A DNA stretch of 64,000 nt from Minisyncoccota bacterium. GTDB taxonomy: Bacteria > Patescibacteriota > Minisyncoccia > Phycocordibacterales > CAIZLB01. The DNA lies in NCBI GenBank assembly GCA_021734945.1, contig JAIPIA010000001.1:90243-154242 (forward strand), written 5' to 3'. Below are positions 29,591-42,322 of the stretch, piece after piece. A program made the position numbers and the translations under genes. The notes under the pieces were generated by a model. It saw only the letters and a program-made list of their open reading frames with translations. It was not told the origin of the DNA and did no database searches. Every line of letters begins with the position of its first letter. The stretch's first letter is position 1.

Positions 29591-29662
29591 TCCGTGGTAG
29601 CTCAGCGGTAGAGCAATCGACTGTTAATCGATTGGTCGTAGGTTCGATCCCTACCCACGGAG
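29591..29662 (+). tRNA. tRNA-Asn (anticodon GTT)
   Basis: manual fold: acceptor TCCGTGG/CCACGGA, D-stem GCTC/GAGC, anticodon stem ATCGA/TCGAT with loop CTGTTAA, T-stem GTAGG/CCTAC with loop TTCGATC, discriminator G; CCA not encoded. Confidence 0.85.
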
Positions 29663-31327
29663 CAAGTTAGGACAGACCGACGCAAAAACGTCGGTTTTTC
29701 CTTTGTCTACATCATAATTTCTAGGTTCGAACTGTGGGTTTTTGAGTTTTGCTTCTTTGAGGCCTTGAATGAGTATATCCATCCATTTTGTGTTGATAAT
29801 ACTCACTTTTTCTTCATCCCATATTAGGTTCGAACCAAAACGTGAAAGAACCTCTCTTTTGGAGTTTATATTGTCAGATTGCATAATATCCACAAACTCT
29901 TTTGTGAGGTCAGCAATGTTGATTGCTGTGTCAAACCAGCTAGCATCAACTTTCCTTCTCGAACTTGATAAGATAGTTTTGTTTAATTCCTCAAGTGACA
30001 CTTTTCCATCAGCTGGAGATAGTGCTCCATCGGCCATCATTTCGATAATCTTCTTTTTTCGTTTTTCAGCTGTCTCAACTTCGTCTTTTGCATGAGTTGT
30101 CATTGCTTGCTGTAGCTCTATATCTTTATCCTTTAATTCGTGTAGATACTTTTTACTCCACTCGACAAGACTTGGGGATAGTTGTACGTTTTCTTTTGCA
30201 TAATCAACTATGTGTCCCGTTAGTTTATTCTCACTGATGTATTTAGTCTTTAGGTAGCTTTTTCTTCTTGCAACATTGTAGTAATAAACGTATTCAAGAT
30301 ATGTAGGCTTATCTATCTCCATGATCAATTTTCCACAATCAGGACAATTTGTCTTATTTGAATATGCAAACTTTTTCTTACAATCACAAATAACCTGGAA
30401 CTTAATGTCTGGTCCTATAAAATCACCGTTAGGGGCCTTAATAAAACCGGCAAAAGTGGTTACATGTGTCTTTGTCTTTGGGAGGTTTCTGTCCGAAAGC
30501 ATTCTTAAGATCTTGTTGTGCTGTGCTTCTGTTATCACTCTCGGTAAGCTTGCGTTTAGCTCATAACGCTGCCCATTCTGATAAAAGAAACCAGCGTATA
30601 TAGGGTCTTTTAGCATCGTATGAACTCTTGAGATGGCCATAAGAGCTCCACCAATTCTTTTATGTTTTGGAGTGGTTAGTTTTAATTCTTCACGTACGTA
30701 TCGTGCCAATCTATTTGCAGACCAATTACCAGTAAGGAACATGTGAAAAATCCTTTCAACTAGCGGGTATTTGTCTTTATCGACTAGCCACTTTCTATTT
30801 CCTTTCTCTTCGGTCTTATCATTGATAAAACCGATAGCAGCGACTCCATGAGGGTAACCCTTTAATGCTTTAGTCTTTTGTCCATTTTTTACAAAGGCAC
30901 TTTTATCGTCACTATCTCTTTTTGAAAAAAGGAACTCGAGTCCTAAAGTCATTTTGTCGATAGATGTATTGTAGTAAGTTCTTGTAGGTGTTTTAACACA
31001 AAGCAGTTTACCTCTATCCATTGCATCTATAACTCTTGCTCCATCAATCGCATTACGTGCGAGACGGTTCGGATGTATAGCTAAAATTGCATTGATCTCG
31101 CCTTTGTTTATTTTTGAAATAAGGCCGTCGAAAATCTGTCGACCCACCTTAAAAGCACTTTTCTCTTCCTTCAAGTAAAGACAAACATTCAGGTCCATTC
31201 TCACTGAGAAATCAGCAAGCTCACGTTCTTGAGTCTCGATTGACTGCACCTGCTTATCTTCGGTATCACTTGATTTTCTACAATATGATCCAAAGCGAAG
31301 TTCTTTTTCATTGATATTGTTGTTCAT
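29651..31327 (-). CDS. large serine recombinase (resolvase/invertase catalytic domain, recombinase domain and zinc-ribbon)
   Basis: 558 aa; N-terminal YCRKSSDTEDKQVQSIETQ (catalytic Ser region), recombinase zinc beta-ribbon CDCKKK...CPDCGK; last 12 nt of CDS overlap tRNA-Asn 3' end. Confidence 0.85.
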   Translation of the reverse strand: MNNNINEKELRFGSYCRKSSDTEDKQVQSIETQERELADFSVRMDLNVCLYLKEEKSAFKVGRQIFDGLISKINKGEINAILAIHPNRLARNAIDGARVIDAMDRGKLLCVKTPTRTYYNTSIDKMTLGLEFLFSKRDSDDKSAFVKNGQKTKALKGYPHGVAAIGFINDKTEEKGNRKWLVDKDKYPLVERIFHMFLTGNWSANRLARYVREELKLTTPKHKRIGGALMAISRVHTMLKDPIYAGFFYQNGQRYELNASLPRVITEAQHNKILRMLSDRNLPKTKTHVTTFAGFIKAPNGDFIGPDIKFQVICDCKKKFAYSNKTNCPDCGKLIMEIDKPTYLEYVYYYNVARRKSYLKTKYISENKLTGHIVDYAKENVQLSPSLVEWSKKYLHELKDKDIELQQAMTTHAKDEVETAEKRKKKIIEMMADGALSPADGKVSLEELNKTILSSSRRKVDASWFDTAINIADLTKEFVDIMQSDNINSKREVLSRFGSNLIWDEEKVSIINTKWMDILIQGLKEAKLKNPQFEPRNYDVDKGKTDVFASVCPNLLRG

Positions 31328-32026
31328 TTTTTTGTTAATTTTAGCACGCGCCGGGATCTTTTACCTCTGATCGATAGTAAAAGTTATCCTTATATGACAA
31401 CACATCCGGGGCTTCATCACGATGTTTTCTCAAGACCCTTGATGAAGATCAGATTGATACGACTCACATCAGACGGCTGGGCAAGAGATCCCGGAGAGAA
31501 CTTGTTTTCCCAGCTTTCGCATGTGCACCTTATCAACCCTTATTTGTTTTGTAGAGCGAAGTTGTTTAACCAGATGCTCTAAATCAGCTGGTGTGGATGT
31601 GTATTTGTTCTACGCTTATGAGCTTCGGCAAGCAAGGTCAATAAGAACAAGCCAATCTGTTGTAGATCGTTTTGATCCAAGAGGTTTGACTTATCTTCGC
31701 CGATTTCTAGGCGGAGAGCCTCTTTTAAATCTTCGATTGCTTTAGTGCTCAAAGTTTTCATACTTTTGAGCCGGTTTCGTCCCAAGAACCGGCCATTCAC
31801 GGGCTAGGTTGAATGACTGGTTTTTAAGACCAAACACGTCTAGCCCATAGTATGAGTCTACGAAATAGCACTCAAAACTCCGAGATCAATATCCAAAATT
31901 ATCTTTATTTAACAACGTATTTTTTATGTGTATTGACACCACTTGCATAAAACAAGAAATACTATCTCTTTCTCTACCAATAAAAATAAGCTAGAATGTA
32001 ATTACAACTAAATAAGCCGACCTAAC

Positions 32027-32165
32027 CCATCGAGAGAAATCTCGGTGGTATGGTCAAAAGTCCAGTAACGATCAAAGAACCCATTATGTGGGGTTGTCGT
32101 TACTGGCCATGCAGGGAAACTTGCATGGAGGCCGCAAGGTCTCACTCACGTAGTGGGCTTTTTGG
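32027..32165. ncRNA. candidate structured RNA element (four consecutive hairpins, two GNRA tetraloops), function unknown
   Basis: CCATCGAGA-GAAA-TCTCGGTGG; CCAGTAACGA...(nested AACCC/GGGTT)...TCGTTACTGG 10-bp perfect stem; CCATGCA-gggaaact-TGCATGG; GAGGCC-GCAA-GGTCTC. Lies within the 720-bp non-coding region and directly upstream of a membrane-protein gene. Confidence 0.3.
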
Positions 32166-32172
32166 TTGCCAA

Positions 32173-32511
32173 ATTATGAAAAAGATAATAGGCATTTTGA
32201 AGAAAGATAAAATAGGGAGACTAGATTACATAATTGCTCTAGGCACATTTCTTGTGCTGGAAGTAGTCATTTTCAGCTTCATCTTCTTGCTTGTCGATCA
32301 CATCAGTAACGACACATGGTTATTTATTTTCGGTACTTTGCTTATTACATCTCTAGGTACTCTTGCTTGGATAAATTCAAAGAGGATGCGAGACGCTGGA
32401 AGGAATACTAAGGAGCTTTTTTACTACTTTGTCATCCCTTTATTCTTTGCTGCCCATAGTATTTTCCTTATCTTTTTAACCAGCAAAGATGCACATCTAC
32501 GACAAAAATAA
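32173..32511 (+). CDS. small 3-TM membrane protein (island-encoded)
   Basis: ORF track gives 32050..32511, but the N-terminal 41 aa overlap the structured non-coding element; ATG at 32173 (MKKIIGIL...) followed by hydrophobic helices is the likely start. Confidence 0.45.
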   Translation: MMKKIIGILKKDKIGRLDYIIALGTFLVLEVVIFSFIFLLVDHISNDTWLFIFGTLLITSLGTLAWINSKRMRDAGRNTKELFYYFVIPLFFAAHSIFLIFLTSKDAHLRQK

Positions 32512-32592
32512 AAATCTAAAGGCAATTTTGGACTTCAAAGACGATAAACCTATTTTGACCTTTAACCCTAAATCGTGGGTCAATAAATTAAG

Positions 32593-32823
32593 GTGGAAGT
32601 TGAGGGTAATACTAAAAAAACTACTGCCATGATTACAGCAGTATATGTTCTAGCTATCACAGTCCTTTGCTTTCAGATCTTGGTAGTACTTTTCGTTATC
32701 TTATCCCTATACAACCTTATTAAGGTTTACGTAAAGACCAAAGAGAAAGAATACCTAGCTGTAATTATATTGGTACTCGGAATTATAGGACTTTGTCTTA
32801 TTTTCCCAGATTTGAGGCCTTAA
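32593..32823 (+). CDS. small 2-TM membrane protein
   Basis: 76 aa, two hydrophobic helices; overlaps 3' end of convergent HTH gene by 26 nt. Confidence 0.35.
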   Translation: MEVEGNTKKTTAMITAVYVLAITVLCFQILVVLFVILSLYNLIKVYVKTKEKEYLAVIILVLGIIGLCLIFPDLRP

Positions 32824-33217
32824 CCCAGCCATTACTTTTTGCCATTTTATCAATACGTTCCTGGAGTTCATCATCGCTTAAACCCTCAAAGCCTGTCCGC
32901 ATAGGTTCTGGAGTCTCAACACGTACTCGGTTAGTGTATTCGCTCGGGTAGCGTCTCTCAAGCCACCAGGCGGCCGCTTGCCAGGTCTTTTTACTAGCTT
33001 CTTTAATTATCTTTATATGCTCCATCTTGTACTCGATCTCTTTTTGCCTCATCTGTTCTGAGAAATCTGAGTCTCGTTTCCAAAAAGAAAGAGTGTCTTC
33101 GCTAATACCAGCAAGAGCAGAAGCGTCCCGCTGGCTAGCGCCATGACTGATAGCGTCTAGGATGATCTTAATGGTTTTTGGGGTAGCTTTTGTTTTACCT
33201 TTAAGTATTTGCGTCAT
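32798..33217 (-). CDS. phage-type helix-turn-helix protein (terminase-small-subunit-like / phBC6A51-type HTH)
   Basis: 139 aa; HGASQRDASALAGISEDTLSFWKR HTH and AAAWWLERRYPSEY motif typical of this phage HTH family. Confidence 0.55.
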   Translation of the reverse strand: MTQILKGKTKATPKTIKIILDAISHGASQRDASALAGISEDTLSFWKRDSDFSEQMRQKEIEYKMEHIKIIKEASKKTWQAAAWWLERRYPSEYTNRVRVETPEPMRTGFEGLSDDELQERIDKMAKSNGWVKASNLGK

Positions 33218-33254
33218 GAAAGAATGATAACAAAACTACCCTATATTATCCGAG

Positions 33255-36200
33255 CTATTTTATATTGAGACTTTCCCACGCAGAGATGATTTGTTGCATT
33301 CTGGCTCCTGCAAGTGGCATTGATGCAAAACGAATTCTGATCACGCTGCGAATAAGTTCAATTGCTGTTCGTGCATCTCTTTCAAAGGTCAAAGCATCAA
33401 GAACGGTCATAATCAGACCTTCACGCTCCTTATCGGTAACCGGCTGCTGCCATAGTAAAAACATGAAGTCAGCTAACACACCAACGACTGATCTAAGCTC
33501 CATTTTTACACCTTTAAGCGTGGCCAAGACTTCTTTGAATGGACTTTGGTTTTCCCATTGTGCTTGCCTTGCTGCCTCAATCAGAGTAGTGCTTTCAAGA
33601 GTAACGTGCTGATATCTGCGAAGAACCAGCTTGATGACTGCATCCCAGTATTCTGAACTCGAGATCTTCTTGTCGATAAGAAAGTGCATCAAAATTGCTT
33701 GCGTCCAAACGCCGTTCACTTTGAAGTCATCGTTCTTTGCATACATTCTAGTGGCCAAGTCTTCAGCGTACAACGAGCACTCGTTTTCTTTTGCGATAAG
33801 TATTGTTTCAATTGCATACTTTCCGAGCACTTTTTCCATCTCTTCAAACTGTTGAGTCTTCGGCAATGTTTTGCATGGTGTTAGAGTACAGTTTTCACGT
33901 ATCCATTTTTTCAGAGACTCAAGTGCTTCCACTTCGGTCGCAGCTTGTTCAGGAGTTTTTTCGTCTCGAATAAAGCTACCATCCATTTTTCCTAAAGTAG
34001 TAGATCCTTTTGAGCCCATCCCTTTTCTTTCTGAAATTGCCTCGTTCAGAGTATCTATGGTTGATTGTGTTACAAGAACTTTCTTGAATTTATCTTTGAA
34101 CATTTCAAGCAAGCCAAGTTGAGATAGAGTGAGTAGGGATGTAATGTCTATGGCTATAGTGTCGTTTGTTTTGATTGAGTCGAGGGCGACTTGACGCTCT
34201 TCAAGGGTGCCAACGCAAGACCTTATACCTACGCTTGCTGAAAGGCCATACCATACATCAACAATGTTCTTGTTAATTACACTTGCGAAAGCACCTACCG
34301 TGAGTTTCATGTCAATATAAAGTTTCTCTGCTTGAGAGACATATTCACTGTGATTTGAGACAACCTGCAAAACTTTATCGAGACTCTCTTTTGTCTTTTC
34401 CTCAGAGCTTACATCTACTGAAAAGCGTTCAAGAGACTTTTGTTCGGAAAATCGTTCCGGCATCAGTCGCATAGACTCATGAAGTGCATGCACGTATTTG
34501 TTTTTGATCTCAGTGATTTTAACCACAATTTTACTGATGGCCCCTTCAGACACAACAACATCATCATTAACCGATCTGCCCAAAAGCTTTTCACCAATTC
34601 CAGAAGAAACACCTATTTCATTCAAAGCCATGCTGAGATCTTTTCGGTCTTCAAGTAGGTAGCATGTGATCTGATCAGCGTCGTTTTTCGTGTATACAGC
34701 ACTAGATATGACTGCAGTTTTTGGGATCTCAAGTAGTTTCTCAAGTTTATGGTCTTGCGCCAAAAAGATAGTCATATACTTGGCATGTGCTTCGCCGTCA
34801 TCGAAGTACTTCCGTCTCAACTGATAGGCGGCTTCGAGTGATTTTTCTACCTTATTCCTTTCAGCGTATAGCTGGGCCAACTGGAACCCCGGGTTTATAG
34901 GGAGTTGGGTTATATCAATATCTTCATCGAGAAACTTATCAAGCTTTTCAAACTCATCAAGTCGAAACCAGTGTGTAGCTAGCCGAGTTTTTATTTCCAG
35001 GTCGTCTGGATGAGATAATAAGTATTTTTCTGCAGCAGCAGAAGCAGCAGACAGATCTCCGATGTTCTCGAGAATAGATAGCTCAATCTGCAACAGAAAC
35101 AAACCCTTGTTTTCGTCTGGTAGACGCTTAAACAAGCTTAGTGCTTTATCAACCTCGTTGGCTCTGTAGTACGAATAGAAAAGATTATCTAGGTGAGGTG
35201 ACGGAACTCTGGGGTCAATTATCTTTTCATACAAAGGCCATGACTGCGCGTATTTTTGCATGTTATACAAGTCGTCTGCCAAATTGATGACAATGTGAGC
35301 AGGGGTCATGTCAGTAATATATCCGTAGGCCTCATCAAGTAGATTGCCCGCCGCTTCCTTGTTACCAGCAAACCTTTCGGTACGGCTTGCGGCAATTAAA
35401 TTCTCGATATTCGTTGGATCAAACGATCTAAGTTTATCGACGATTTTTTTTGCTTTCTCATAATTTTTCTCCTTGATATAAACATGAACAAGCATGCGTT
35501 CTTCCTCGGATCGTAATTCAGGCGGGAGGTCGTCGCTGAACGATTTGATCAGTGTCTCCCGTGCCTCTACTAGGTTATTTTCATCAAAATAGATACCAGC
35601 AAGAACATATGCGGCTTCTGGAACCTCTTTTTTACCTACCACAGTCTTGAGTATCTCAATGGCCTGCTTTCTCTCTCCCTTTGAGTAGAGCATGAACGCC
35701 TGCTGTTTCAACATTGCCGCATCTTCAGGCTGGTAGCGCACCGCGCTGGCCATATCAGCATTAGCCTTATCCATTTCACCTAGTAGCTTATAAGCTGTTG
35801 CTCGATTGGCGTACCAAGAGGGACGATAGCTTATACTTTCAGAATTAGAAAGACTGTCTATGGCTTCCGAAAGTAATTGAACAGCTTTTTCTATTTTTTC
35901 CTTGTCTTCTGGGATAAGTTGCATATTGTTTGCGACTTCATGCTTCTGCATAAAAGTCTCAAGGATCGTGGATGCAAGATTTGCTTGAATGTCAGGGTTC
36001 TTCTTTCTGATTTTTATAGAGTCTTCCATTGCAATCTCAAGCCACTTTATAGATGATGCGAGATCACCGCGTTCACGTGCTGCATGCGCAATGGTAAACG
36101 CCACATCTTCTGACTTTCGAAACTCTGCTGGTATATCCTTCAGTATATCTTCAAGCGCTTGAGTCTTTGGGGAGCAGTTTATCAGAATGCCGATTGCTCG

Positions 36201-37532
36201 TGTGCTCGCTGGGTTCTTGTCCAAGACTTTTCTAATGTATGTCTTACACTCTTCTGTCTGATCGAGCATGAGATGACCCAAAGCTCTGTTACAAAGTGAT
36301 TTTTCATCTTCGGGATTGTATTGGTGAGCTTGTATAAAAAGTGACCCTGCCTCTTTTTCTCGATGTAGAGATGCTAATGCGGCGGCCTTGTTCGTTAGTA
36401 TTCGAAACTTAGAGATGTCGTTTGCACTGCTCCAGATCCGCTTCTCCAGACCCTCAAGAAAGTCCAGAGCTTCTTTCGGCTTCATATTGTTGATCAAATC
36501 TCTTCCGTGATCGATCTCAGCGGCATGTTCACTCGCGATTGCAGTAGTGTCAAAAACCATCTGAGCTATTTCCTTTTTTTCTGTTGTGTTAGCGGCAACA
36601 GACTCATTTATGAGAGCAAGACCGTCACCAACCTTTTTTTCAATGTTGCCGAGCTTTTCCGTAAAAGCATCAGAAAGAGAAGGATCGACGTTCGAAGAGG
36701 CTAATGCCGGGTAGTATTTTGAGGCAACATTTCCAAAGTTCCCAAGTTTTTCGAGTATGTCATCCCAAGAGAAGACGTGAACGGAAAACATTCCCTTTGT
36801 TGCGTGCTCCATTGAGATCTTCAGTGCCGCTTGTTGTAGCGACGTGTCTCTTTTACCAGTGTATGCAATAACGAGTTCTGTAAGAGGAGGGTTGAATTTT
36901 TTTGCTTCATCGACAATATCTTGAATATCGCTCACTGATAAAGCGTCAGCAGTTTCATTGCTTGTCGCATCCTTCTTCTTGCACTGTATTGCTCCAAGTT
37001 TTTGTGTCTCTTTAACTTTACCTAAGATGTCTATTCCGTTCTGTCTCTGTCCTGAACGACCATATCTCACTAAGTTGTGATCGTTCCAAATCTCTTGCCA
37101 TAAATCAGCAGAAAGTCTTTCAAATTTCTCCCATTCTCTTGGAGGAGGGACTTGCCACTGGGCAATATCAACAGGACTCGAAGATGTAGACTTTGGCTCA
37201 TTCCCGATAGAGCTGTCTATAAGTTTTTGCAGGCTTAAAATGAAATCGTTCCAGGTCATTTCGCCTTTGTACCAAAGAATACAGATGTCGGTTCTGTGCC
37301 GGAGGACGCGCATGAAGGTTTGCCATGTGAAGCCTTTCGCCTTGAGCTGACTTTTCAGGTTATCCCAGAGGTATTTCGGCAGTTTGTTGCCTGTCCAGAC
37401 GATAGAAGCATCGTCGCTGCTTTCAGGGGAAGACTGCTTCATAGATTGCATCAACGCTTTTAGGTCCAAAGGTTCAGGTGGAGTATTTATTTTCATACCC
37501 CCAGTATATGGGGTATAAAAGTAAAATACCAT
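33255..37532 (-). CDS. 1425-aa multidomain protein: N-terminal Mrr-like PD-(D/E)xK restriction-endonuclease-fold domain, long TPR array, C-terminal PIN-like(?) domain
   Basis: aa about 134-262 match the Mrr_cat pattern (FE.L..LW...GRSGQ.QNGIDI...IQCK...ELVIAYTG, FSWDDIL); aa about 350-1000 tetratricopeptide-like helical repeats; C-terminal DTIAIDITSLL plus later acidic residues suggest PIN-like fold (weak); no Walker A found. Confidence 0.8.
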   Translation of the reverse strand: MVFYFYTPYTGGMKINTPPEPLDLKALMQSMKQSSPESSDDASIVWTGNKLPKYLWDNLKSQLKAKGFTWQTFMRVLRHRTDICILWYKGEMTWNDFILSLQKLIDSSIGNEPKSTSSSPVDIAQWQVPPPREWEKFERLSADLWQEIWNDHNLVRYGRSGQRQNGIDILGKVKETQKLGAIQCKKKDATSNETADALSVSDIQDIVDEAKKFNPPLTELVIAYTGKRDTSLQQAALKISMEHATKGMFSVHVFSWDDILEKLGNFGNVASKYYPALASSNVDPSLSDAFTEKLGNIEKKVGDGLALINESVAANTTEKKEIAQMVFDTTAIASEHAAEIDHGRDLINNMKPKEALDFLEGLEKRIWSSANDISKFRILTNKAAALASLHREKEAGSLFIQAHQYNPEDEKSLCNRALGHLMLDQTEECKTYIRKVLDKNPASTRAIGILINCSPKTQALEDILKDIPAEFRKSEDVAFTIAHAARERGDLASSIKWLEIAMEDSIKIRKKNPDIQANLASTILETFMQKHEVANNMQLIPEDKEKIEKAVQLLSEAIDSLSNSESISYRPSWYANRATAYKLLGEMDKANADMASAVRYQPEDAAMLKQQAFMLYSKGERKQAIEILKTVVGKKEVPEAAYVLAGIYFDENNLVEARETLIKSFSDDLPPELRSEEERMLVHVYIKEKNYEKAKKIVDKLRSFDPTNIENLIAASRTERFAGNKEAAGNLLDEAYGYITDMTPAHIVINLADDLYNMQKYAQSWPLYEKIIDPRVPSPHLDNLFYSYYRANEVDKALSLFKRLPDENKGLFLLQIELSILENIGDLSAASAAAEKYLLSHPDDLEIKTRLATHWFRLDEFEKLDKFLDEDIDITQLPINPGFQLAQLYAERNKVEKSLEAAYQLRRKYFDDGEAHAKYMTIFLAQDHKLEKLLEIPKTAVISSAVYTKNDADQITCYLLEDRKDLSMALNEIGVSSGIGEKLLGRSVNDDVVVSEGAISKIVVKITEIKNKYVHALHESMRLMPERFSEQKSLERFSVDVSSEEKTKESLDKVLQVVSNHSEYVSQAEKLYIDMKLTVGAFASVINKNIVDVWYGLSASVGIRSCVGTLEERQVALDSIKTNDTIAIDITSLLTLSQLGLLEMFKDKFKKVLVTQSTIDTLNEAISERKGMGSKGSTTLGKMDGSFIRDEKTPEQAATEVEALESLKKWIRENCTLTPCKTLPKTQQFEEMEKVLGKYAIETILIAKENECSLYAEDLATRMYAKNDDFKVNGVWTQAILMHFLIDKKISSSEYWDAVIKLVLRRYQHVTLESTTLIEAARQAQWENQSPFKEVLATLKGVKMELRSVVGVLADFMFLLWQQPVTDKEREGLIMTVLDALTFERDARTAIELIRSVIRIRFASMPLAGARMQQIISAWESLNIK

Positions 37533-37603
37533 ATTGCTTGTCAGATAAAACTGTGTCCTGGTTGCATATCTATCTCAATTTAACTTTTTGAGTTAAAGTA
37601 AGG

Positions 37604-38197
37604 GTGTTTATGGCGACTACAACCCCAACAATATGGACTTTCATTGATGCGTCACCTTTTTGGTCGGCTTTTTTTGCACAGCTTCTTGCTACTCTTATTG
37701 TTGTTATTATCGGTTCTGTTGTAATTCCACCAATACTAAAGTGGAGGAAAAGAACAAAATTAAAGTTTTTCAAAACCCATACCTTTTTTAGTAAGAACTT
37801 TGAATTAACAGAGTCATCTGACGGAGAGTATGAGGCCACACTTCATTTATCTATAAAAAACTTTGGATCTGAAACGGTAGAGCGCTTTTATTGGGAGATG
37901 TATTTCCCAAAAGAGATGTCTGTTGAATTGGTTACCAAACCTCCTTACCCTCGTTACTTCACCACAAATCATCAGAAAGGAAATAAATACTTGAGACATT
38001 ATGGTTATGTAGAGTTACCGCTCTTTTCACTTGATGAAGTTGATTTTGTATACGAAATAAAAGTTAAAATTAAAGAAAAGAAAAAGATCAAGATATTCTA
38101 TTTCTTCAACAGCGATAATGGCGTATCGCCAGCATGGACTTGGCTTGCTATTACTCTTAAGAAACATCATTGGCTAAAGTTTTTGGTTCTTGAATAA
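37604..38197 (+). CDS. hypothetical membrane-anchored protein
   Basis: 197 aa; N-terminal hydrophobic helix, Lys-rich C-terminal part; last gene before candidate attR. Confidence 0.45.
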   Translation: MFMATTTPTIWTFIDASPFWSAFFAQLLATLIVVIIGSVVIPPILKWRKRTKLKFFKTHTFFSKNFELTESSDGEYEATLHLSIKNFGSETVERFYWEMYFPKEMSVELVTKPPYPRYFTTNHQKGNKYLRHYGYVELPLFSLDEVDFVYEIKVKIKEKKKIKIFYFFNSDNGVSPAWTWLAITLKKHHWLKFLVLE

Positions 38198-38336
38198 CTC
38201 ATTTCCTCTATTATAGCTATTCGGACAGCGTCCCAGGTTCGGAGCAGTAAAAGAAAGAGTGCCAGCACAAGCTGGTGCTTTTTCTTTTGCATGACTGTGT
38301 GAATACTGTGATCGAATTTCGACCAAGGGGAGGGGT

Positions 38337-38352
38337 GATCCATACCCACGGA
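38337..38352. repeat. candidate attR: 16-nt direct repeat of tRNA-Asn 3' end (15/16 identical)
   Basis: GATCCATACCCACGGA vs tRNA 29646..29661 GATCCCTACCCACGGA; a second weaker copy CCCACGGAGATAAGTT at 39540..39555 resembles tRNA end plus its downstream flank. Confidence 0.45.
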
Positions 38353-38466
38353 ACTCGTCTGTACATAATAGAAATAATGTTATATAAATGTAATGTTCTT
38401 TTGCGTCAGTAAACAATCAATAGGCTTAAAGGAGAGCCTGGTACGATTTGTACCGAATATGTCAGT

Positions 38467-38685
38467 ATGCATTTCAATACAAACGAAATCATGATTCCAC
38501 TCACTTCGTGGACTGCGTTCGACAGAGGAGAAATTATTGAAGCCAATTCGCCAGATGGTATTACTCTTAAGGTGGGAGATACAATCTGGTGGGTATGTGC
38601 TCAGTATGATGGTACGTGTAGCGTTGTGGAAGCAAAATCGACTGTGCCAGGAAGTACTGTGAAGATCAAAAAACTGGCGAATTAA
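38467..38685 (+). CDS. small hypothetical protein
   Basis: 72 aa ORF in otherwise non-coding stretch; no motif. Confidence 0.3.
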   Translation: MHFNTNEIMIPLTSWTAFDRGEIIEANSPDGITLKVGDTIWWVCAQYDGTCSVVEAKSTVPGSTVKIKKLAN

Positions 38686-38889
38686 AAAGCTACCAACGAA
38701 AGCAGGAGGTCACCTCTACTCGTTGGTGGCTTTTCTGTTTTATATAAAATACTATATAAGGTGATTTTTTTACCCTAAAACTTTTCTGAACGAAAATATT
38801 TTTTGTATTTTTATTTTGACACCTAATAATACATGTGTTAATTTATTTCCAGACTGACAATCCCGTCAGCCCGAACAAAGGAGGTTCTT

Positions 38890-39462
38890 TTGAAACCTGA
38901 TATTCTCTGCAGTGTTTTGGCAGGACTTCTCAGTGTCCTCGCCTTCGGCATCTATAATTGGCAAACTTTCCAAGGACAAGTCAGCCCTAACATCACTTCG
39001 TGGGCAGTGTGGAGCTTTATGACGCTCCTCAACTTCACTTCCTATAAAGCAATGACAAAGGATGGCTGGAAAAGTCTTCTTCCGACCATTAGTGGTATCC
39101 AGTGCATTCTCACCTTTGTGCTCGCTCTCTTCCAAGGGCAACTCAAAGTAATTGGAATGAACGACGGTATCGTCCTCGTGGTCGGCATCACGGCAAGTTT
39201 GTTGTGGTGGAAGCTTAAGTCTCCAACAGTCACGAACATGATGCTCCAGCTTGGCATCACCATAGGTTTCATCCCGACGTTTCAAAGTGTCTGGATGCGA
39301 CCTCAAAGTGAAATCGCCCTTTGCTGGTTTCTGTGGACTGTCTCGTTTGTGTTCCAAACTACCGTGGTCATTCAGCGGTGGAAAGAACAAAAGCGAGACC
39401 TTGTCTATCCAATCAATTGCCTTTGGCTTCATCTCGCTGTGGCACTGCTGGCTCTTCGGTAA
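38890..39462 (+). CDS. hypothetical multi-TM membrane protein, GC-rich gene
   Basis: 190 aa; TTG start 8 nt after a strong RBS AAAGGAGG; 5-6 TM helices; noticeably higher GC than genome; antisense 218-aa ORF rejected. Confidence 0.55.
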   Translation: MKPDILCSVLAGLLSVLAFGIYNWQTFQGQVSPNITSWAVWSFMTLLNFTSYKAMTKDGWKSLLPTISGIQCILTFVLALFQGQLKVIGMNDGIVLVVGITASLLWWKLKSPTVTNMMLQLGITIGFIPTFQSVWMRPQSEIALCWFLWTVSFVFQTTVVIQRWKEQKRDLVYPINCLWLHLAVALLALR

Positions 39463-39649
39463 TAACCCACTCAACAGGATACCCCTGCTTGCAGTGGGTT
39501 TTCCTTTTATATAAGTAAACAAGTTCTAATATCCTCAAGCCCACGGAGATAAGTTGTCAGACAATTTGTGAGGTGTATCATTAAGTCAGATTTAAGCGTT
39601 TAAAACCTGCGGAGTTAACATCAACCCACAATACAGAAAGGAGAACTTA

Positions 39650-40561
39650 ATGAAAATCTTTTATGATAGCACTTACGATTTAGAAGGTTACGACACCACA
39701 AGGAAAGCTAAATGGATCTATGATTCTCTGTGCCAAAACCCAATCAGAAATGTCGAGGTCATAAGTCCTCCATTGCTGGATGAGACGCTCTTAAAAAGAG
39801 TTCATTGTCAAAGGTATATAAACACAGTGAGGTCAGGATCACCAATCAGACTTGCTGAATCGCAAGGTCTTCGTTGGTCACCTGATCTTTGGAGATCTGT
39901 AACTGCTTCCACTATGGGCGTAGTAGCTGCTGCACAACAATCATTGAATGATGGTGTTTCTGGTTCATTATCGAGTGGATTGCATCATGCACAGTACGCG
40001 CGTGGAGCAGGATACTGCACGTTCAATGGTCTTGTGGTAGCAGCAGAGCATCTCCATCAAGAAGGAGTTGAACATATTCTCATTCTTGATTTGGATGCCC
40101 ATTTTGGAGGAGGTACAAACTCACTTCTTGTCAAAAGGGGTTATATCCATCATGTTGATGTATCAGTCAGCAGGTTTGATAGGTATCCTGTGTGTCCTTG
40201 TCAGGCTGGCACGAATCCTCGTCCTTTCAGAACAGCTTTGTTGATTACTAATTCCGATGAGTATCTTCGATCAATTGAAATCTGCCTTGAAAAGATTGAG
40301 GAATTAAACATCAAGTTTGGCGCTTGCTTATACAACGCTGGTGTGGATCCACATGAAAATTGTATGGTAGGAGGAATTGATGGAATCACGACTGATACCC
40401 TGCACTGTCGCGATCAGATGGTTTTTGAATGGTGTAAGAGACGGGGAGTACCTATTTCATTTGCTTTGGCTGGCGGTTATATAGGCACACAGCTGTCAGT
40501 GGAGACGCTTGTTGGCTTGCATCGAGGAACGATTGAAGCGGCAGCTAGGACTATTCGTTGA
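39650..40561 (+). CDS. histone deacetylase (HDAC)/acetoin-utilisation AcuC/acetylpolyamine amidohydrolase family protein
   Basis: 303 aa; HDAC motifs GLHHAQYARGAGYCTFNGL and ILILDLDAHFGGGT (variant of D.D.HHGNG); strong RBS AGGAGA; GC-rich. Confidence 0.8.
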   Translation: MKIFYDSTYDLEGYDTTRKAKWIYDSLCQNPIRNVEVISPPLLDETLLKRVHCQRYINTVRSGSPIRLAESQGLRWSPDLWRSVTASTMGVVAAAQQSLNDGVSGSLSSGLHHAQYARGAGYCTFNGLVVAAEHLHQEGVEHILILDLDAHFGGGTNSLLVKRGYIHHVDVSVSRFDRYPVCPCQAGTNPRPFRTALLITNSDEYLRSIEICLEKIEELNIKFGACLYNAGVDPHENCMVGGIDGITTDTLHCRDQMVFEWCKRRGVPISFALAGGYIGTQLSVETLVGLHRGTIEAAARTIR

Positions 40562-40569
40562 GATTTTGT

Positions 40570-40603
40570 GGTGGCGCTGTCCTTAGTTGGACGGCGCCAC
40601 TTT
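40570..40603 (+). terminator. rho-independent terminator
   Basis: GTGGCGCTGTCC-ttagtt-GGACGGCGCCAC 12-bp stem (one G-U) followed by TTTT. Confidence 0.7.
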
Positions 40604-40669
40604 TACGTTTATATTACTTACACTTGATAATAGTGATGAATTTAATTATCATTAGTGTAATTAAATAAT

Positions 40670-41962
40670 ATGAATAGCGATAAAGTAAATGTTCGGAGAG
40701 AATTTTTTGCTGGCCTTGCCACGTATTTGGCAATTACGCATGTATTCATACTTAATCCAATATTATTGTCTAAGGCAGGTATTAATTTAAGTGCAGGTTT
40801 CTTTGCTGTAATAATATCTAGTTTTGTCGCTACTTTGCTTATGGGTATTTGGGCAAAATTACCTTTTGTAGTTGCTCCTGCTACTACGCTAACCACTTTC
40901 CTTGTCTATTATGTAGTTATAGAAAATGGTGTTCCTTGGCAAGGAGCATTAGCTGCTGTGTTTGTATCTGGTGTGCTTTGCATACTGATGACATATTTCT
41001 CAGTTAGAACAAAAATAATTGAGTCTATGGATGGTGTGTTGAAAATTGGACTTCTTTTTTCCCTGGGCTCATTCTTAGTAGCAAATGGACTAGTGCAAGC
41101 TAAGATAATAGTTTTTAATAATGGTCTAATTAAGTTTTTGCCATTCAATTCATTTCAAACGTATACAGGTTTTCTTATTTTATTGGCGGGGCTTGGCACA
41201 ACACTTCTTTTTAGAATTAGATTTATGAGGCTATCTTTTGCTCCAGTTATTGGAATAATTGTCGCTGCACTGCTTGCTTATAGTCTTGGAATTAAGTCTA
41301 CAGTGGGCGCACACTTCTCTAAGGAAATGTTTTTATCTATTGGAAAATTGGATTTTTCGCTTCTTTTGGATTCTCGAGTAATTACCGCAATACTTATTTT
41401 TTTTATAGTTGATTTCTTTGGTAGCGTAGGGAAATTCGTCGGGTTGTTTGGTTTTATAAAAGGAATGGGGTCTATTGAGGAGAAAGAGAAGATGAACAAG
41501 GCGCTATATATTGATGGAGTAGGAAATATAGTTGGAGCACTATTCGGGGCAACTACTTTATCAGTATTTTTATCAAGTGCTGTTGGAATAAAGGTGGGAG
41601 GTAGAACAGGTCTTACTGCTATATTTGTTTCACTATTTATTCTATCAAGTCTATTTCTGTTTCCATTAGTTGGGTCAATCCCTCCTGGGGCAATAGCCGG
41701 CACTTTGATATATATAGGTTGCAGTATGATTCCTGCTAGAAAAATATTCGGTAATAGTAAGGACATGCTTGGTTATTTATCTGTTTTTGCATTTTTAGGT
41801 GCATCTGTTATTTCTTTCATAACATATAGTATTGATAAATCTATATTATTTCTATTTGTAATTCAAACAATACTTAGTTTACGAAATGGGATTCAGAAAA
41901 GTAATATTACTTTTATGGTAATTACTATTATCCTTGGATTAGCTATCTTTCTTCAAAATTAG
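40670..41962 (+). CDS. NCS2-family purine permease (AzgA-like guanine/hypoxanthine permease, COG2252)
   Basis: 430 aa, about 12 TM; N-terminal REFFAGLATYLAITHVFILNPILLSKAG is characteristic of COG2252 permeases. Confidence 0.7.
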   Translation: MNSDKVNVRREFFAGLATYLAITHVFILNPILLSKAGINLSAGFFAVIISSFVATLLMGIWAKLPFVVAPATTLTTFLVYYVVIENGVPWQGALAAVFVSGVLCILMTYFSVRTKIIESMDGVLKIGLLFSLGSFLVANGLVQAKIIVFNNGLIKFLPFNSFQTYTGFLILLAGLGTTLLFRIRFMRLSFAPVIGIIVAALLAYSLGIKSTVGAHFSKEMFLSIGKLDFSLLLDSRVITAILIFFIVDFFGSVGKFVGLFGFIKGMGSIEEKEKMNKALYIDGVGNIVGALFGATTLSVFLSSAVGIKVGGRTGLTAIFVSLFILSSLFLFPLVGSIPPGAIAGTLIYIGCSMIPARKIFGNSKDMLGYLSVFAFLGASVISFITYSIDKSILFLFVIQTILSLRNGIQKSNITFMVITIILGLAIFLQN

Positions 41963-41977
41963 TATATAATTGAACAT

Positions 41978-42322
41978 ATGAATAATACAAACAAAATAGT
42001 AGTAGCGGTTTTAGTCATCGCTGTAATTGGTATATTTGCTTATTATCAAAAAGTCGGTGAACAGCCAGTTGTTTCTGAGGTCACACCAAGTACTGAAACA
42101 GTATCAACAAGTACATCATCAACAGCTACAACATCTACAGATACAGCAGCTATGGGAAAAATAAATATTGATGTGGTCTGTCAGGGCGCTCTTGCATATA
42201 TGAGTTTCAAAGATGGTGCGAGTGCAGATGCTTTTGTTGCAGAATGTAAAGAAGGAAAACATCCAGAAGTTATTGAGCGATTTAAAGCAGATATGAACCT
42301 TGGTGACGGGGCACAAATATAA
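41978..42322 (+). CDS. small membrane-anchored/secreted Ser/Thr-rich protein
   Basis: 114 aa; N-terminal TM, Thr/Ser linker, small C-terminal domain with 2 Cys. Confidence 0.45.
   Translation: MNNTNKIVVAVLVIAVIGIFAYYQKVGEQPVVSEVTPSTETVSTSTSSTATTSTDTAAMGKINIDVVCQGALAYMSFKDGASADAFVAECKEGKHPEVIERFKADMNLGDGAQI

Follow-up and report, generated by a model that had tools for sequence, protein, structure and literature searches.

Within a 64,000-nt stretch of contig JAIPIA010000001.1 from a Minisyncoccota bacterium (hereafter the window), positions 29663-38244 very probably form an 8.58-kb island that was placed at the extreme 3′ end of a tRNA-Asn gene by its own large serine recombinase (LSR). An earlier reading made from the letters alone (the sequence-only reading) had proposed an island inserted at this tRNA by means of an LSR. 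This proposal is upheld by an empty site in relatives, by both junctions and by the restoration of a reading frame when the two ends are joined. All the sequence facts it cited are present in the window, and its left end, at the tRNA, is correct. The features that define the two ends are as follows.

29591-29662, plus strand: tRNA-Asn(GTT) (ARAGORN, Rfam), chromosomal target and left arm of attB, intact after integration
29651-31327, minus strand: LSR of 558 aa, truncated integrated form (Pfam PF00239 and PF07508; phrog_95)
29658-29664, no strand assigned: attL core CGGAGCA, made up of the final 5 tRNA bases and the 2 nt that follow (four-way att comparison)
29674-29697, plus strand: terminator-like hairpin with T-run, supplied by the element, directly 3′ of the tRNA (terminator scan)
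38206-38251, minus strand: attR, the orphan left arm of attP, a class-B site (nhmmer), encoding the detached LSR tail LLLRTWDAVRIAIIE
38264-38279, plus strand: native tRNA-Asn terminator hairpin, right arm of attB, moved 8.6 kb by the insertion (terminator scan)

The tRNA target and the recombinase

The tRNA-Asn(GTT) gene scored 72.4 bits in Rfam, and ARAGORN stretches it to 29663. On the plus strand, the recombinase stop codon TAG reads CTA (29651-29653) and falls in the 3′ strand of the T-stem, so that the ORF and the tRNA overlap by 12 nt. The ORF coordinates and this stop codon confirm the 558-aa serine recombinase running 12 nt into tRNA-Asn that had been read from the sequence. Its final codons, R-G-stop, come from tRNA sequence. 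The hairpin at 29674-29697 falls inside the final codons of the recombinase ORF, and a comparable hairpin is found 3′ of tRNA-Asn at other loci too.

The catalytic domain of the LSR (Pfam Resolvase PF00239, E 1.2e-11, residues 14-157) is followed by a Recombinase domain (PF07508, E 1.1e-9, residues 185-280), and the protein matches the PHROG integrase family phrog_95 (E 4e-48). More than 350 homologues were found, and those with a named source come from lineages of the candidate phyla radiation (CPR). In an alignment of 34 homologues, conservation reaches 90% or more at Y15, R17 and S19 of the catalytic-serine motif and is complete at R88 and R91, and four invariant cysteines (C314, C316, C328 and C331) stand where a zinc ribbon is expected. 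The same alignment ends in a conserved ...LLRG. As the last codons vary with the acceptor stem of each host (LRG-stop, LPG-stop and so on), this "conserved" C-terminus is really tRNA sequence.

The homologues fall into two length classes. Those adjoining tRNA-Asn have about 556-580 aa, and the others have about 593-615 aa with conserved extra tails, which in class A read ...STML followed by PLVDKFRTxNWTxIKSDLQFSG and in class B ...LLR followed by TWDDVRIAINEF. Examples of the long form are P0003 in L070, P0027 in L030, P0032 in L005, and the LSRs of L018 and L063. The likeness between short and long forms ends right after the LL(R) codons, which correspond to the last bases of the tRNA. attP would therefore lie inside the 3′ end of the LSR ORF, and a detached arm coding for the tail would be expected at the other end of an integrated element.

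The 3′ coding region of the LSR contains two copies of the motif TAGGTTCGAAC (29722-29732 and 29825-29835), which has the same sequence as the tRNA T-arm TAGGTTCGA. The two copies are in different reading frames, one encoding F-E-P and the other G-S-N-L, and they occupy the same positions in 46 LSR genes. The F-E-P codons are TTC GAA CCT in 46 of 46 genes, and the serine of the other copy is TCG in 44 of 46, compared to a background use of 7%. Since synonymous positions are frozen in both copies, the constraint acts on DNA or RNA.

The right end and the joining of the ends

Such an arm was found at 38206-38251. In the whole window, the nhmmer site profile scored 42.6 bits here (E about 1e-12), and the next-best match reached 3 bits. 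A tblastn comparison of the P0003 tail with this arm gave 80% identity over 15 aa. The arm has a core, CGGAGCA (38240-38246), identical to the heptamer at the end of the tRNA (29658-29664). attL and attR share these 7 nt alone and their flanking arms are unrelated, which is expected of serine recombinases with short cores. From the common core CGGAG(CA) at 29658-29664 and 38240-38246, the element follows as 29663-38244, 8,582 bp. When attB, attL, an attP-like site and attR were compared, homology broke at CGGAGCA.

attB, empty-site relative L072: ...CCCTACCCACGGAG followed by CAAACGAAAAAGACC...
attL, window: ...CCCTACCCACGGAG followed by CAAGTTAGGACAGACC...
attP-like site, L070: ...CGTCCCAGGTGCGGAG followed by CAAGATAGGACGGATGG...
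attR, window: ...CGTCCCAGGTTCGGAG followed by CAGTAAAAGAAAGAGTGCC...

This break suggests that the crossover at attL took place within CGGAGCA; the exchanged dinucleotide would be one of this core.

Joining the ends in silico gave an in-frame LSR of 580 aa ending in ...CPNLLRTWDAVRIAIIEEMSYSRTKNFSQ. The closest long form, P0003, ends in ...RPILLRTWDDVRIAINEF..., which is homologous to the tail of the joined protein. The same join also restores the tRNA-Asn with its terminator. The predicted junction k-mers are GTCCCAGGTTCGGAGCAAGTTAGGACAG for the attP circle and CCCTACCCACGGAGCAGTAAAAGAAAGAG for the restored attB. Terminator-like hairpins stand directly after both cores, and empty-site relatives harbour an analogous hairpin directly 3′ of tRNA-Asn. 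The exact right arm of attB had no match in a scan of metagenome contigs. One candidate for a left-arm motif, GGGGTACRCATCA, was found in L018 and L063 only and was rejected.

The 16-nt repeat

The sequence-only reading had drawn the right boundary 93 nt further to the right, at a near-exact 16-nt copy of the tRNA 3′ end. This copy does exist: the 16-mer GATCCCTACCCACGGA (29646-29661) recurs on the plus strand at 38337-38352 as GATCCaTACCCACGGA, 15 of 16 positions being identical, and this is the sole match in the window with at most one mismatch. For the fixed 16-mer, 0.14 matches are expected with three mismatches allowed, and the repeat is well above chance; taken instead as the top match for a 200-nt query, it is borderline (blastn-short, E 0.59). 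A gapped alignment extends the likeness to a degenerate, tRNA-like segment of some 65 nt (about 38301-38366), within which the 16-mer has been preserved best; this segment scored 36, whereas 393 random windows gave 19 ± 3.3 and reached 31 at most.

38296-38352, plus strand: degenerate tRNA-like remnant containing the 16-mer, outside the element and absent from L072

The remnant corresponds, in decayed form, to tRNA-Asn from its anticodon stem through the 3′ end. It lies 52 nt past the attR core, beyond the native terminator, and was not matched by the site profiles, that of class A included. An older integration of another kind may have left it behind as a scar.

That the island is bounded by the two 16-mers, with a crossover in the T-loop and acceptor region as for classical tRNA integrases, is very improbable, even though the repeat is unique, ends exactly where a tRNA 3′ end would and sits in a longer stretch scoring above background. 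A site conserved family-wide, the only one in the window (42.6 bits), stands 93 nt left of the repeat and, together with attL, restores both the frame and the tail of the LSR. Most of the tRNA-adjoining loci examined have no tRNA-derived repeat above control within 10 kb, and the 13-nt repeat of L022 lies inside the element, 3 kb short of that locus's site. The acceptor stems differ between hosts, which is easiest explained by an acceptor stem derived wholly from the host. Moreover, with its mismatches and indels, the remnant would not form a paired T-stem. Integrated tRNA islands are recognised by a tRNA repeat of at least 15 nt that marks the crossover; the repeat that actually flanks this element has 7 nt.

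A further copy had been read at 39540-39555. This is a 9-nt match only (CCCACGGAG plus AAGTT), and as a third site it was rejected, having no support from the site profile. A long tRNA repeat as a trait of the family was dropped as well: ungapped and gapped direct-repeat searches in 29-38 loci gave few outliers, namely the window, L005, L022 and L066, and their matches are not at the element ends.

The empty site and the DNA to the right of the island

Starting from homologues of a 441-aa flank protein, we reached the empty site that the sequence-only reading had asked of related genomes, on contigs L072-L075 from four samples; a scan of genome contigs with the same protein gave no match. These relatives are collinear with the window over 16.8-29.67 kb, with tblastx segments of 70-90% identity. 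They have an identical 72-nt tRNA-Asn, which is followed by CAAACG, a terminator and unrelated genes. Neither an LSR nor att sites were found in L072-L075, and LOOT, an RNA that the element carries (see below), was absent from L072 when scanned against Rfam. The composition check agreed: the G+C content is raised to 0.404 in the element compared to 0.354-0.356 in its flanks. The relatives thus show neither an ancestral gene order, nor is the fixed 16-nt repeat at chance level, and the island is therefore an insertion.

Similarity to L072 resumes only at 42158 and at 47.3-49.3 kb, and the block 38245-41970 (G+C 0.396) is also missing from this relative. It contains the tRNA-like scar, a 72-aa ORF, a 190-aa DUF6962-like membrane protein, a gene of the histone-deacetylase family (HDAC-like) and a xanthine/uracil-type permease. 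In its place, L072 has about 2 kb of other genes (PF1765-like, glyoxalase). Each of the two genomes thus has its own content downstream of tRNA-Asn, which marks this DNA as a variable hotspot, and 38245-41970 may be an older layer of it.

We also considered that a 12.3-kb block from 29663 to about 41970 is a single insertion, with the 38.2-kb site internal, or a composite with older hotspot insertions. The late return of synteny, the G+C content that stays raised to 41970 (0.43-0.48 for the 72-aa, 190-aa and HDAC-like genes), the scar at 38296-38352, and the tandem elements and multi-site arrays of related loci are consistent with this. Against it, the site profile has a single match in the whole window and none inside 38245-41970, a terminator-like hairpin follows right after the attR core as expected for a tRNA gene, the permease is host-like (G+C 0.343), and L072 carries unrelated genes of its own there, both genomes being variable. 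We regard the larger block as improbable and retain 29663-38244 as the element.

Points against the proposed element and its mobility

Several observations weigh against an LSR island with these exact ends. The relatives L072-L075 belong to a different species, the flank protein being 69% identical, and as the DNA right of the tRNA is unalignable until 42.16 kb, the comparison alone cannot fix the right boundary to the base. The long-form loci that we took as attP-like (L070, L018 and L063) could in principle be integrations at other targets. In a crude count, the dyad symmetry of the reconstituted attP and of three attP-like sites was no higher than in shuffles, although weak symmetry is possible. 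A Pfam scan gave no match of Zn_ribbon_recom in the LSR. Finally, no excised circle and no empty-site read from the same population was seen. In the Logan assembly of the source sample (SRR12088351; L001 _16817 and L002 _5498), the sequence breaks inside tRNA-Asn at about 29609-29626 and is unbroken through attR, and current mobility is therefore unproven. An identical tRNA in a co-occurring relative explains this break better than excision.

The element might accordingly be a fixed relic, in which the truncated LSR and the sites persist while excision has ceased. The unbranched assembly at attR, an integrated LSR that lacks the conserved tail, and the decayed LSR fragments common in related loci point in this direction. 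On the other hand, the LSR ORF is full length with all invariant residues kept, the two cores are identical at 7 of 7 positions, the orphan arm equals the best sites of other loci in score, the 73-aa ORF upstream of the LSR is open and LOOT is full length relative to its Rfam model. A relic is possible though unlikely, and the element may still be mobile today.

Proposed route of integration

We propose that the element enters with attP inside the 3′ end of its LSR ORF. Recombination in CGGAGCA (attP x attB) would join the wholly intact host tRNA to the element. In the same event the terminators would be swapped: that of the element replaces the tRNA's own, which is pushed 8.6 kb away beside the orphan attP arm (attR). 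The tails would be swapped as well, the LSR going from a predicted 580 aa to 558 aa as the tail RTWDAVRIAIIEE... is replaced by R-G-stop from the acceptor and T-stem. Because attP lies inside the LSR ORF, the enzyme would differ between its integrated and excised states. The change from 580 to 558 aa could alter its behaviour, and a regulatory meaning of the tail swap is a testable idea. Excision would need a directionality factor, for which the 73-aa protein is the obvious candidate. Besides variable cargo, the element has a backbone of the LSR, this 73-aa partner gene and LOOT.

This LSR lineage appears to be aimed at the very last bases of the tRNA. One family could use hosts with differing acceptor stems because only the final five tRNA bases, CGGAG, are common to tRNA and element.

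Conservation of the arrangement across loci

An LSR search with one genome per species gave 67 loci. The sequence-only reading had called the arrangement uncommon; on the contrary, an overlap of LSR and tRNA-Asn recurs in about 40 of the 56 CPR loci with a homologous recombinase. In 29 loci the LSR stop lies inside an opposite-strand tRNA-Asn as in the window (ARAGORN). Six further loci have the same layout, but with a tRNA-Asn that ARAGORN missed because a group I intron splits its anticodon loop; at another four, the tRNA is partial or cut off by the contig end. The intron (RF00028, 67-87 bits) was identified with Rfam at L013:11693-12064, L031:11717-12002, L019:11687-11998 and L009:8272-8497, and was judged by sequence in L004 and L066. 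In the intron-split loci the LSR still adjoins the 3′ exon. A sequence beside the tRNA 3′ half, ATGATATAGTCC..., had been considered as the left arm of an attP with a crossover in the anticodon loop; it is actually the 3′ part of this intron (Rfam).

The site is conserved likewise. A regular expression for the tail gave 38 matches, all on the LSR strand, and the nhmmer profile gave 57 matches in 32 loci, nearly all upstream of the LSR and most outside ORFs. Conservation of the site stops sharply at CTCCG. Across 27 loci, the LSR end and the nearest site are a median 8.5 kb apart. The hosts of the family are Paceibacteria, Nomura-, Yonath-, Zambryski-, Vogel- and Taylorbacteria. In the literature searched we found no published account of CPR serine-recombinase islands or of the biology and context of LOOT; the family is widespread and apparently undescribed. 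Mobile elements of CPR bacteria are poorly charted, and a family with exact ends, a conserved backbone and defence-type cargo makes systematic annotation possible. Moreover, an LSR with attB and attP predicted at the base level (a conserved arm of about 45 nt) is a candidate reagent for genome engineering.

Two LSR genes or fragments within 10 kb of each other were seen in L005, L030, L033, L043, L062, L063 and L066. In L005 and L030 the second, complete LSR does not adjoin the tRNA and is of the long C-terminal form, which fits repeated integration at the same site.

Backbone and cargo

The interior of the element contains the following features.

31579-31800, minus strand: conserved small protein of 73 aa, directly upstream of the LSR (BLASTP)
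32019-32143, plus strand: LOOT RNA (RF03000; Rfam), pointing away from the LSR, at the head of the cargo region
32141-32157: terminator-like hairpin between LOOT and the first cargo ORF, which starts at 32167 (terminator scan)
32167-32511, plus strand: small membrane protein with weak DUF805 likeness (Pfam E 7e-4, below the curated cutoff)
32593-32823, plus strand: hydrophobic ORF of 76 aa, no family match (ORF list)
32798-33217, minus strand: 139-aa HTH protein resembling the phage terminase small subunit (TerS) (phrog_4102, E 5e-22; Pfam HTH_28)
33255-37532, minus strand: 1425-aa TPR/GreAB-C/PIN protein (Pfam PF20698 PIN-TPR-GreABC, E 3e-25; TPR families)
37604-38197, plus strand: 197-aa protein with an N-terminal hydrophobic stretch, no family match (ORF list)

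What had been described as a 720-bp non-coding stretch thus holds the conserved 73-aa ORF and LOOT. BLASTP matches of the 73-aa protein are small ORFs directly upstream of the LSR in CPR and Bacteroidota loci (clusters C11 and C48). The protein has no Pfam, PHROG or PADLOC family, and a Pfam search with the backbone proteins C1 and C52 gave nothing usable. From its position, it is a candidate directionality factor or regulator.

LOOT scored 89.1 bits compared to a gathering score of 46.4 and covers model positions 1-121 of 121. With a covariance model built from 19 copies (R1), we found LOOT in 31 of the 67 LSR loci (within L003-L068), all of CPR type. At tRNA-adjoining loci it is always on the element side of the tRNA and never on the host side. 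It usually lies 0.6-3 kb upstream of the LSR, pointing away from it, and a same-strand ORF begins 5-75 nt after it; these ORFs are unrelated and differ in every locus. From this constant place and the locus-specific ORF that follows, LOOT marks the boundary between backbone and cargo, which gives this orphan RNA a genomic context. LOOT is part of the backbone of these LSR elements, and it may act on the expression of the cargo.

In the cargo, the 1425-aa protein has a weakly Mrr-nuclease-like N-terminal part, TPR repeats, a GreAB-C-like region and a PIN domain, in this order. Its GreA_GreB (E 1e-3, below cutoff) and Mrr_cat_2 matches are weak. By its domains, it appears to be of the conflict or defence type, PF20698 "TPR-GreAB-C-PIN"; PADLOC matched no system in the cargo. 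Inspection of the sequences at other loci revealed giant proteins, further accessory genes and proteins resembling type III restriction-modification enzymes.

The TerS-like protein hints at phage-mediated transfer, and the element could be a phage satellite or cryptic prophage that spreads by helper-phage packaging through this protein. Its membership in phrog_4102, a terminase small subunit family, agrees with this, as does a GP3_package-domain protein near the LSR of L071. However, Pfam, PHROG and PADLOC revealed no phage capsid, portal, large terminase, replication, primase or capsid-remodelling gene in the element, and of what a phage-inducible island or satellite would carry only the integrase and the TerS-like protein were found. 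A scan of 2.9 million IMG/VR contigs with the LSR alignment gave no relative, and TerS-like homologues occur in just 4 of about 70 loci (L003, L026 and L035 among them). A satellite is therefore decidedly improbable, and we continue to regard the element as a recombinase island with accessory cargo.

Comparison with known systems

By analogy, the element is an LSR island most like the SCC elements. In SCC/SCCmec, Ccr large serine recombinases insert islands at the 3′ end of rlmH, which stays functional. These islands have a short core and variable accessory or defence cargo, and they form composite arrays with repeated sites and recombinase-less units. The element resembles them in its LSR, its 3′-end target that is kept functional, its short core and its variable cargo, and related loci resemble them in their arrays. 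It differs in that the target is a tRNA gene instead of rlmH and the host a CPR bacterium, and in its single LSR gene, which is only remotely related to solved structures. Furthermore, its attP is inside the LSR ORF, so that integration would alter the protein C-terminus, and its backbone includes LOOT and the 73-aa partner gene.

With the phage serine integrases (phiC31, Bxb1, A118 and TP901-1), the LSR shares the Resolvase and recombinase domains, four conserved cysteines at the place expected of a zinc ribbon, and a short core. Unlike these phages, the element has no phage structural genes and the LSR no IMG/VR relatives. Phage serine integrases usually target protein-coding genes, whereas the target here is the 3′ end of tRNA-Asn.

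Mycobacteriophages of the BPs/Brujita type carry attP inside the repressor gene, and integration by their tyrosine recombinase cuts this ORF and changes its C-terminus. Here, too, an ORF spanning attP is cut by integration, but the gene that is cut is the serine recombinase itself.

Islands placed at tRNA genes by tyrosine integrases resemble the element in that they abut the tRNA 3′ end with the integrase adjoining the tRNA, leave the tRNA functional, have an atypical composition and are absent from relatives. In contrast, the enzyme here is a serine recombinase, the repeat has 7 nt compared to their tRNA segment of 15-60 nt, and the element replaces the terminator and not part of the tRNA. 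In a survey of mycobacterial prophages, the 16 attB sites overlapping tRNA or tmRNA genes all belong to tyrosine-integrase systems, and serine integrase sites were described as having short cores and being hard to predict (PMC10654092).

Multi-site arrays beyond the main element were observed in L013:453-3821, L019:963-3574, L031:1207-3496, L065:1311-6487 and L066:3910-7994. They have 3-6 site copies that are 0.7-2.5 kb apart (mostly 0.7-1.6 kb), with about one ORF per interval, usually in the direction of the tRNA. These arrays resemble integron or SCC arrays; the window has a single site.

Judging from their layout, the 0.7-1.6 kb single-ORF units of these related loci, each ending in an LSR site, may be likened to integron cassettes, and most ORFs run in one direction as in integrons. 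Integrons have an IntI tyrosine integrase and attC hairpins as sites; these loci have neither, and their LSR stands at a tRNA. Nor does the window present the IntI, attI and attC of an integron: its sole recombinase is of the serine type, with the single site. One could picture a gene-acquisition platform at the tRNA-Asn of CPR bacteria, in which the swap of the LSR C-terminus senses the integrated or excised state and biases direction, one-gene, one-site units are captured in arrays as in integrons or SCC, and LOOT is a leader that drives or gates cargo expression. In this full form, such a platform is rather unlikely.

Bacteroidota relatives and irregular loci

LSRs that are 36-44% identical occur in Bacteroidota (Flavobacteriaceae; Dokdonia, Kordia, Sediminibacterium) with the same small partner ORF and no adjoining tRNA (L021, L029, L036, L037, L040-L042, L053, L054, L058 and L069). 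In about ten such loci no tRNA-Asn was found next to the LSR. Their neighbourhood is conserved on both sides (clusters C2, C10, C5, C13, C12 and C16, and C6, C7 and C8), and the LSR of L040 has a long class-B tail.

A few CPR loci are irregular. L006 and L047 each have an extra piece of tRNA-Asn made up of T-arm and acceptor, which in L006 immediately precedes the intact tRNA (about 100 nt upstream of it) and in L047 stands beside the LSR end. In L023, an inverted class-B site (12572, minus strand) is located 650 nt on the host side of the tRNA.

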